Both the position numbers and the translations under genes were made by a program. 64,000 bases of DNA from Escherichia coli (lineage in GTDB: Bacteria > Pseudomonadota > Gammaproteobacteria > Enterobacterales > Enterobacteriaceae), in NCBI RefSeq assembly GCF_044324875.1, contig NZ_CP172185.1; one strand, written 5' to 3'. Of the stretch, positions 5,384-5,575 are shown piece after piece (the stretch's first letter is position 1; each line of letters starts with the position of its first letter). The notes beneath the pieces are model-generated. The model did not search any database and was not told where the DNA came from. It saw only the letters and a program-made list of their open reading frames with translations.

Positions 5384-5575
5384 AGAGGGCTGGGGTGAGG
5401 CTTTTCCCTCACCCAAACCCTCTCCATGTGGAGAGGGGCCGCGCCGGATGCGGCGTAAACGCCTTATCCGGCCTACAAGAACGTGCAAATTCAACAAACT
5501 ACGCTTTGTTTTGTAGGCCTGATAAGCGTAGCGCATCAGGCAATAAGCCCCACCTTCTCCATGTGGAGAGGTGGG
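5384..5575. repeat. REP/BIME-type palindromic repeat cluster in the mtlA-mtlD intergenic region
   Basis: Contains gccggatgcggcgtaaacgccttatccggcctac and gtaggcctgataagcgtagcgcatcaggc units plus ctctccatgtggagag palindromes. Confidence 0.7.

Follow-up and report, generated by a model that had tools for sequence, protein, structure and literature searches.

The DNA analysed here, a 64,000-nt stretch that we refer to as the window, belongs to the E. coli chromosome, as indicated by megablast identities of 99.4–100% to several complete genomes, and its gene order is inverted relative to that of K-12. The left part comprises the end of a YadA-like adhesin gene and a DUF3251 gene, yibL, yibT, mtlR-mtlD-mtlA (minus strand), yibIH, yibF, and selAB; the middle part comprises yiaY, aldB, yiaWV, yiaU, and yiaT, followed by a block encoding a GH127 glycoside hydrolase, an MFS transporter, and an AraC regulator; and the right part extends from sgbE through yiaK (minus strand) to plaR, ysaA, avtA (minus strand), malS, bax, and the xyl genes. 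The gene names used in an initial annotation of this DNA proved correct on comparison with K-12 and other E. coli annotation. Positions 1–2700, between lldP and yibL, contain two features that are absent from K-12, namely the DUF3251 gene (1510–2193, minus strand) and the end of the large YadA-like adhesin gene, the latter judged from the ST2747 annotation. Further along, yibH is directly followed by yibF (9533–9604), and the rhsA element with its downstream genes and fragments, which spans about 8 kb in K-12 and is rearranged and duplicated in ST2747, is absent. The features discussed below are collected in Table 1.

Table 1. Repeat units, linkers, hairpins, block genes, K-12 deletions, and Rfam matches in the window.
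Positions	Strand	Feature	Basis or remark
5383–5437	-	Non-REP palindromic element, ~30 nt upstream of the mtlD start	Conserved across Enterobacteriaceae
5441–5478	-	REP a, y type (GCCGGATGCGGCG...CTTATCCGGCCTAC on the plus strand; GTAG-first on the minus strand); left half of the mtlA-mtlD BIME-1	E = 4e-11
5479–5510	.	L linker of cluster 1, TTGAATTTGCA core kept	IHF-consensus comparison
5511–5545	+	REP b, short z type (GTAGGCCTGATAAGCGTAGCGCATCAGGC)	E = 1e-7
5549–5575	-	Second non-REP hairpin (CCCACCTTCTCC-ATGT-GGAGAGGTGGG), 6 nt after the mtlA stop codon	Escherichia only, among loci listed
16652–16691	-	REP c, a long z (z2) unit that follows the aldB stop codon by 31 nt	Pattern and profile
16700–16739	+	REP d, y type, tail-to-tail with c over a 12-nt S-like linker	BIME-2-like pair
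20497–20521	.	REP-tail remnant (GGCTGGCCTAC, 20497–20507) and S-like linker (GCTCTCGCACCGACTT)	Right arm of hairpin 20489–20521
20503–20718	.	Deletion 1 of K-12, 216 bp; REPs e and f and the GH127 3' end lost	GGCTGG at both ends
20522–20564	+	REP e, long z type (z2)	Pattern and profile
20573–20610	-	REP f, degenerate y type, head-to-head with e	Profile
20605–22623	-	GH127 glycoside hydrolase	Name from annotation in other genomes
20903–24923	.	Deletion 2 of K-12, 4021 bp; loss of the MFS transporter and of the larger part of both GH127 and the AraC regulator	
22586–23986	-	MFS transporter	Name from annotation in other genomes
24212–25027	+	AraC regulator	Name from annotation in other genomes
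35722–35759	-	REP g, y type, left unit of a BIME-1	Pattern and profile
35760–35790	.	L linker of cluster 4, contains ATTCAATATATTG	Rfam ES036/CssrF just above threshold (38.9 bits vs 37.6)
35791–35824	+	REP h, short z type (z1)	Profile
54550–54703	+	sok antitoxin RNA (hok/sok-type locus)	Rfam gathering-level match
56826–57253	-	cspA 5'-UTR thermoregulator	Rfam gathering-level match

REP/BIME elements have been known since the 1980s. The initial annotation had placed dense REP-type palindromes at the mtlA-mtlD junction (5384–5575), after aldB (16654–16738), after yiaT (20500–20610), and between ysaA and avtA (35724–35822), and pattern, profile, and copy-number evidence established genuine REP units at all four places, with these coordinates correct. 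A tail/head scan combined with an nhmmer profile identified exactly eight strong REP units in the window, two in each of the four intergenic regions. GCCGGATGCGGCG at two or fewer mismatches matched the window 12 times (2.9 expected; 0 of 100 shuffles reached 12) and GCCTGATGCGACGC matched five times (0.76 expected), while exact matches to literature-type REP head patterns were confined to the same four regions. The profile recovered all eight units at E = 1e-7 to 4e-11, with the next best match in the 64 kb at E = 0.048; as it was trained on these same units, the informative part is the gap in E-value alone. Copy number per genome in megablast comparisons provided independent evidence that the clusters are multi-copy, in that queries containing a cluster matched a median of 20–31 places per E. 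coli genome and neighbouring non-REP queries a median of 1. At gathering thresholds, no Rfam REP family matched the window; sub-threshold matches to the REP-derived naRNA4 were found. The K-12 RefSeq record lists no REP features, and K-12 was therefore compared by sequence, by eye and with BLAST, which located clusters 1, 2, and 4 at the same sites with few substitutions.

All eight units are extragenic, the only overlap being that of REP f with the GH127 stop codon. They measure 34–43 nt, with stems of 13–17 nt at 80–86% complementarity, and GTAG/CTAC is present at the tail in 8/8, lying inside GTAGGTTGG in REP f and inside ATGCCTAC in REP c; these two units are degenerate. Alignment of the eight units separated them into three classes, namely y (a, d, f, and g), short z (b and h), and long z (c and e), the last of which has about five additional central bases. 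The z1 and z2 labels were assigned to the z classes by architecture, after the definitions in PMC3333891, where BIME-1 is a z1 and a y unit joined by a long linker L, frequently with an IHF site and in single copy per site, and BIME-2 is an alternation of z2 and y units with short linkers, tandemly amplified. We assign a probability of roughly 0.9 to the reading that these are eight standard E. coli REPs arranged as four BIMEs, two BIME-1 and two BIME-2-like, whose function and evolution would be those of the family. The K-12 genome contains 584 REPs, or 1 per ~8 kb (PMC3333891), and the window, with 8 per 64 kb (1 per 8 kb), equals that average; the clusters are an already known kind of element at normal density. 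With three of the four sites shared with K-12, the presence of these elements in the window matters little in itself.

Cluster 1 (5441–5545) is a y unit and a short z unit placed tail-to-tail around an L linker of ~32 nt, and REP b is called z1 as the partner in a BIME-1 (nomenclature of PMC3333891). The description of 5384–5575 as dense REP sequence holds for 5441–5545; about 40% of that span consists of locus-specific hairpins that are not REPs. Likewise, the proposal that the clusters mark operon boundaries stands for the other three, which lie at the 3' ends of transcription units, and fails for cluster 1, which is intercistronic in mtlA-mtlD-mtlR. The cluster-1 linker has two mismatches to the IHF consensus in the window and one in K-12, and matches with one or no mismatch arise by chance about once per kb. 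Among E. coli genomes, the mtlA-mtlD spacer measures 94, 228, 319, or 419 bp and carries 0, 2, 4, or 6 REPs, respectively: (i) the 94-bp form, with no REP and one hairpin, is found in O157 AR-0429 and others; (ii) the 228-bp form, y-L-z1, is that of the window and K-12; (iii) the 319-bp form, y-z2-y-z1, is that of ST131 EC958; and (iv) the 419-bp form, with six REPs, is that of LTC101. The cluster-1 query was at least 80% covered in ~80% of E. coli genomes, and the short form without the BIME occurs in ~20%. A literature search for mtl-specific publications on the mtlA-mtlD spacer gave nothing useful. Together with a 113-bp BIME-1 indel beside avtA, the 0/2/4/6-REP alleles offer natural test material for effects on mRNA stability, operon polarity, and translation termination.

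The palindromic element between cluster 1 and mtlD (5383–5437) is the sole mildly novel lead of this analysis. In the mRNA sense it reads CCCUCUCC-loop-GGAGAGGG-UUU-GGGUGAGG-loop-CCUCACCC-CAG-CCCUCUC, and GGAGAGGG is able to pair with either of the flanking CCCUCUC segments, the two pairings being mutually exclusive. It is present as a single copy in 5404/5426 E. coli genomes. A reading of the hairpins flanking cluster 1 as part of the BIME or as a dispersed repeat was rejected on their single-copy status in E. coli. When the mtlD start was located by a degenerate-codon scan, with one genome per species, at least 120 loci were obtained (E. fergusonii is absent among the 88 loci listed), and the form CCCUCUCC-loop-GGAGAGGG-YYN-GGGUGAGG-loop-CCUCACCC-CAG-CCCUCUC, followed by GGGUAAAAACAUUGAUGAAGGUUAAUACUAUG, recurred in at least 55 distinct sequences. 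The genera that carry it include, among the loci listed, Escherichia, Salmonella, Citrobacter, Enterobacter, Klebsiella, Kosakonia, Cedecea, and Pluralibacter. Its 18-bp outer helix is 93% paired, compared with 33–57% when the partners are slid, and double changes occur at 4 pairs, so that the element combines strong sequence conservation with modest covariation. No Rfam family covers it. The slot between the mtlA stop codon and this element is occupied differently among the loci listed: it is empty in Pseudescherichia, contains one Salmonella-type REP in S. enterica diarizonae and C. youngae, contains an ERIC in C. werkmanii and C. braakii, and contains the BIME and the second hairpin in every Escherichia sampled. 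These observations allow a tentative proposal, which we hold with low confidence, that 5383–5437 is an undescribed ancient cis-acting element of the mtl operon and that unrelated mobile repeats have repeatedly inserted into the adjoining slot; such an element could act as an RNA switch-like or a processing/attenuation structure that sets MtlD and MtlR output relative to MtlA. Some Enterobacter and Pluralibacter loci carry the motif outside mtl as well, so that an equally possible origin is a REP-like repeat family, dispersed to this day in Enterobacter-type genomes, of which the element would be one ancient copy that became fixed.

Clusters 2 (16652–16739) and 3 (20522–20610) each combine a y unit with a long z unit over short linkers of 12–17 nt. 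In the window there is one REP pair per site, and cluster 3 additionally retains the remnant of a further unit. The arrangement aldB-BIME-yiaW was found in 3792/5426 genomes, and yiaWVUT occupies the segment in about 70%. ST131-type genomes have aldB and GH127 side by side in convergent orientation, with only z2-L-y-linker-y, a 3-REP BIME, between them; the count for this type, up to about 865 genomes, is a ceiling that includes some joined hicAB-type matches. Homology of the ST131-type interval with the window stops exactly at the tail of REP c (16689) and resumes at REP e (20522), and its middle unit, a d-like y REP followed by the cluster 3 linker, resembles a d/e hybrid. A single-step deletion between REPs d and e is only partly consistent with this junction, where an L linker replaces the short linker; the different linker reveals a history of more than one step. 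In further strains, the genes between aldB and GH127 are hicAB, with or without a type I restriction endonuclease gene; there, either homology to the window starts again at 20514, 8 nt ahead of REP e, or REP c is truncated in its tail. On these alignments, REP edges mark the limits of a variable segment, 16690–20521, and the aldB-GH127 interval is a small variable locus that holds yiaWVUT, hicAB, a type I restriction gene with hicAB, or nothing. In some strains, a Fic-family gene, absent from the window, lies between yiaY and aldB.

Alignment of the yiaT-sgbE region bears on the GH127/MFS/AraC block, which the initial annotation had taken for a non-K-12 cassette. The block is not an insertion: the K-12 pseudogenes ysaD and ysaC are retained pieces of it, and K-12 is therefore the deleted form, with two deletions. 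We suggest that annotation should treat the GH127, MFS, and AraC genes as ancestral genes deleted in K-12, with ysaC and ysaD as remnants. The block was at least 80% covered in 2311/5426 genomes, and the K-12-type remnant was present in roughly 45% of the sampled rows. The associated claim that cluster 3 coincides with the cassette junction survives in part. The left K-12 breakpoint (20502/20503) does fall within the cluster span, where it cuts the REP-tail remnant, 19 nt ahead of REP e. Both complete REPs, however, lie inside the DNA that K-12 lacks, and the remaining breakpoints (20718 and 20902/24924) are in coding sequence. Aligning the window with K-12 revealed neither a REP nor microhomology at the ends of deletion 2. 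Two further features were noted on the sgbE side, namely a GC-rich hairpin (GTGCCGGGGCAATGAAGCCCCGGCG) at 25028–25052, between the AraC gene and sgbE, and the end of window homology at about 25036 in O157:H7, where an IclR-family regulator lies beside the cassette in place of sgbE (araD).

Cluster 4 (35722–35824) resembles cluster 1 in pairing a y unit tail-to-tail with a short z unit, over a linker of 32–33 nt. This L linker deviates from the IHF consensus at one position, a degree of similarity expected by chance about once per kb. The cluster is a 113-bp presence/absence polymorphism, present in 4491/5426 genomes and missing as a BIME from about 17%, and no duplication was found at the edges of the indel. 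In strains without this BIME-1, the avtA stop codon abuts the ysaA/avtA terminator hairpin. The neighbouring ysaA gene has, at 35336–35360, an additional 11-bp copy of GACCACGGCTG, giving three tandem copies compared with two imperfect ones in K-12, and its frame is shifted into ORFs of 61 and 62 codons; it is either a probable pseudogene or the product of a sequencing error.

The clusters sit on the transcripts of mtlA, aldB, yiaT/GH127, and ysaA/avtA. The mtl spacer folds at -108.9 kcal/mol (z = -7.8 relative to shuffled sequence) and the other clusters give z = -3.2 to -6.9; in the predicted BIME-1 fold, pairing between the two units yields a single long hairpin. The TAG stop codon of GH127 (20605–20607, minus strand) is formed by the GTAG of REP f, a distance of 0 nt, and the avtA stop codon (35827–35829, minus strand) is followed after 5 nt by the stem of REP h. 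For members of the REP family, roles in RNA stability, attenuation, IHF binding, and gyrase binding have been published (PMC3333891, PMC6379681, and PMC12306157); ribosome stalling can be caused by REPs that lie no more than 15 nt from a stop codon (PMC12306157), and gyrase prefers BIME-2 (PMC6379681). By analogy with these, the initial suggestion of mRNA 3' stabilisers or attenuators is plausible for the clusters, as are roles as IHF and gyrase sites. At the RNA level, (i) the REP stem-loops would stabilise the cistron upstream of them (mtlA, aldB, yiaT/GH127, or ysaA/avtA) as barriers to 3'-to-5' exonucleases, (ii) cluster 1 would attenuate read-through into mtlD-mtlR, and (iii) the REPs adjoining the GH127 and avtA stop codons might stall terminating ribosomes. 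At the DNA level, IHF would bind at the L linkers of the BIME-1 elements and gyrase at the BIME-2 units. As ~20% of genomes lack the cluster-1 BIME and ~17% the cluster-4 BIME, these two elements are dispensable, and any role they have would be modulatory.

The tendency of the clusters to recombine, which had also been proposed, is supported by strain comparison, both by the 0, 2, 4, or 6 REPs at cluster 1 and by the segment between clusters 2 and 3, whose content varies and whose breakpoints coincide with REP edges. Across sequenced strains, small and large indels accumulate at these REP sites, and the palindromes and repeats may turn their intergenic positions into indel hot spots. In the window, the cluster 1 BIME lies between two copies of a 16-nt sequence (TCTCCATGTGGAGAGG) that 5549–5575 shares with 5421–5436, and it is thereby flanked by direct repeats (5421–5436 and 5556–5571); the 94-bp allele is 134 bp shorter and contains exactly one copy. 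Taken with the single hairpin seen in genera outside Escherichia among the loci listed, this arrangement could suggest that the flanking hairpin copies are a target-site duplication and that the 94-bp allele is the unoccupied ancestral site. That account is unlikely, however, since E. albertii, two divergent Escherichia, B2 (EC958), and K-12 all carry both hairpins and the BIME, and the right flank of the short allele (GGAGAGGG-TAGG-ATTGGATTA) matches the flank of the K-12 outer hairpin, with one substitution (G to A). The K-12 outer hairpin has an arm one G longer than that of the window. Because all sampled Escherichia lineages carry both hairpins and the BIME, the 94-bp allele is, on grounds of parsimony, most simply explained as a later deletion between the flanking repeats. 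At the yiaT-sgbE junction of K-12, the position of the left breakpoint inside cluster 3, in the REP-tail remnant, might be taken to indicate homologous recombination between REPs with excision of the cassette between them. We regard this origin as extremely improbable, and the junction alignment led us to reject it: the partner breakpoint at 20718 lies in GH127 coding sequence and has only GGCTGG in common with the left side, the 4021-bp deletion is a separate event with no REP at either end, and the sgbE side has no REP. With GGCTGG as microhomology between the joint and a site inside the GH127 gene, deletion 1 is a microhomology deletion that adjoins the REPs and is not a product of REP-REP recombination.

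Two alternatives concern what the clusters do. As GC-rich stem-loops 3' of aldB, yiaT, GH127, ysaA, and avtA, the palindromes could be taken for Rho-independent terminators that define operon ends, a reading to which we give very little credence. In a terminator scan of the REP intervals, none of the eight REPs had a T-run behind its hairpin, the only matches in the scanned intervals being at 16898–16917 and 20453–20466, and the intrinsic-terminator reading was rejected on this basis. Moreover, cluster 1 lies inside the mtlADR operon, and a scan found no promoter-like site between mtlA and mtlD, so that expression of mtlD-mtlR must read through the cluster. A more substantial possibility, though one we favour less than its opposite, is that the clusters are essentially neutral or selfish DNA without a host function that persists in tolerant intergenic 3' ends. 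In its favour are the variation in presence and in REP copy number that three of the four sites show in otherwise near-identical loci, the density equal to the genome average, and the unrelated repeats (Salmonella-type REP or ERIC), or nothing, that other genera carry after mtlA among the loci listed. The functions published for the family (PMC3333891, PMC6379681, and PMC12306157) argue against it, as does the retention of the BIME and both flanking hairpins after mtlA from E. albertii to E. coli. Within the preferred reading, as standard BIMEs with the properties of their family, the REPs would be semi-selfish repeats that depend on RAYT and undergo gain, loss, and amplification.

Comparison with described repeat systems places each cluster more closely. 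Clusters 1 and 4 are like BIME-1 (RIB/RIP) in having y and short z units around a TTGAATTTGCA or ATTCAATATATTG linker, as a single unit at a gene 3' end. They depart from it in that the window cluster-1 linker has lost part of the IHF consensus, cluster 1 is intercistronic, and the same site in B2 strains carries a chimeric array of 4–6 REPs (y-z2-y-z1), an "atypical BIME". Clusters 2 and 3 are like BIME-2, whose short linkers are of the S, s, l, and r kinds, in pairing y with long z over short linkers and in the remnant of a further unit at cluster 3, and EC958, with 4 REPs, and LTC101, with 6, show amplification of the y-z2 unit in their mtlA-mtlD spacers; unlike BIME-2, the window has one pair per site, and REPs c and f are degenerate. 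REP-mediated duplications occur in Salmonella, and BIME polymorphism among E. coli strains was reportedly described by Bachellier et al. in 1997 (Genetics 145:551, as referenced in PMC3333891). The loci studied here agree with REPs as join-points in that REP number varies by strain and homology breaks at REP edges (16689, 20514, and 20522), but the repeats used by the K-12 deletion and by the 134-bp deletion at mtlA-mtlD are non-REP sequences that adjoin the REPs. As in the REPIN/RAYT system, the inverted REP pairs of the window, with their conserved GTAG, have the form of the substrate of TnpA-REP (RAYT, yafM), which consists of inverted REP pairs with a conserved GTAG (PMC3333891). RAYT is a single-locus gene in E. 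coli (PMC3333891), and none was noticed among the window ORFs. ERIC/IRU elements and Salmonella/Citrobacter-type REPs are comparable in that, in Citrobacter and Salmonella, they fill the space that separates the mtlA stop codon from the hairpin, but they are unrelated sequence families with no member in the window.

One further pair of hairpins was found outside the four clusters. The bax-xylR spacer (40433–40539) contains two hairpins of REP-half-like sequence, CCTTATCCGAC...GTCGGATAAGG followed by T5, and TCGCATCAGGT...ACCTGATGTGACG, which look like a decayed REP pair (nhmmer E = 0.048) that may now form a bidirectional terminator-like structure.
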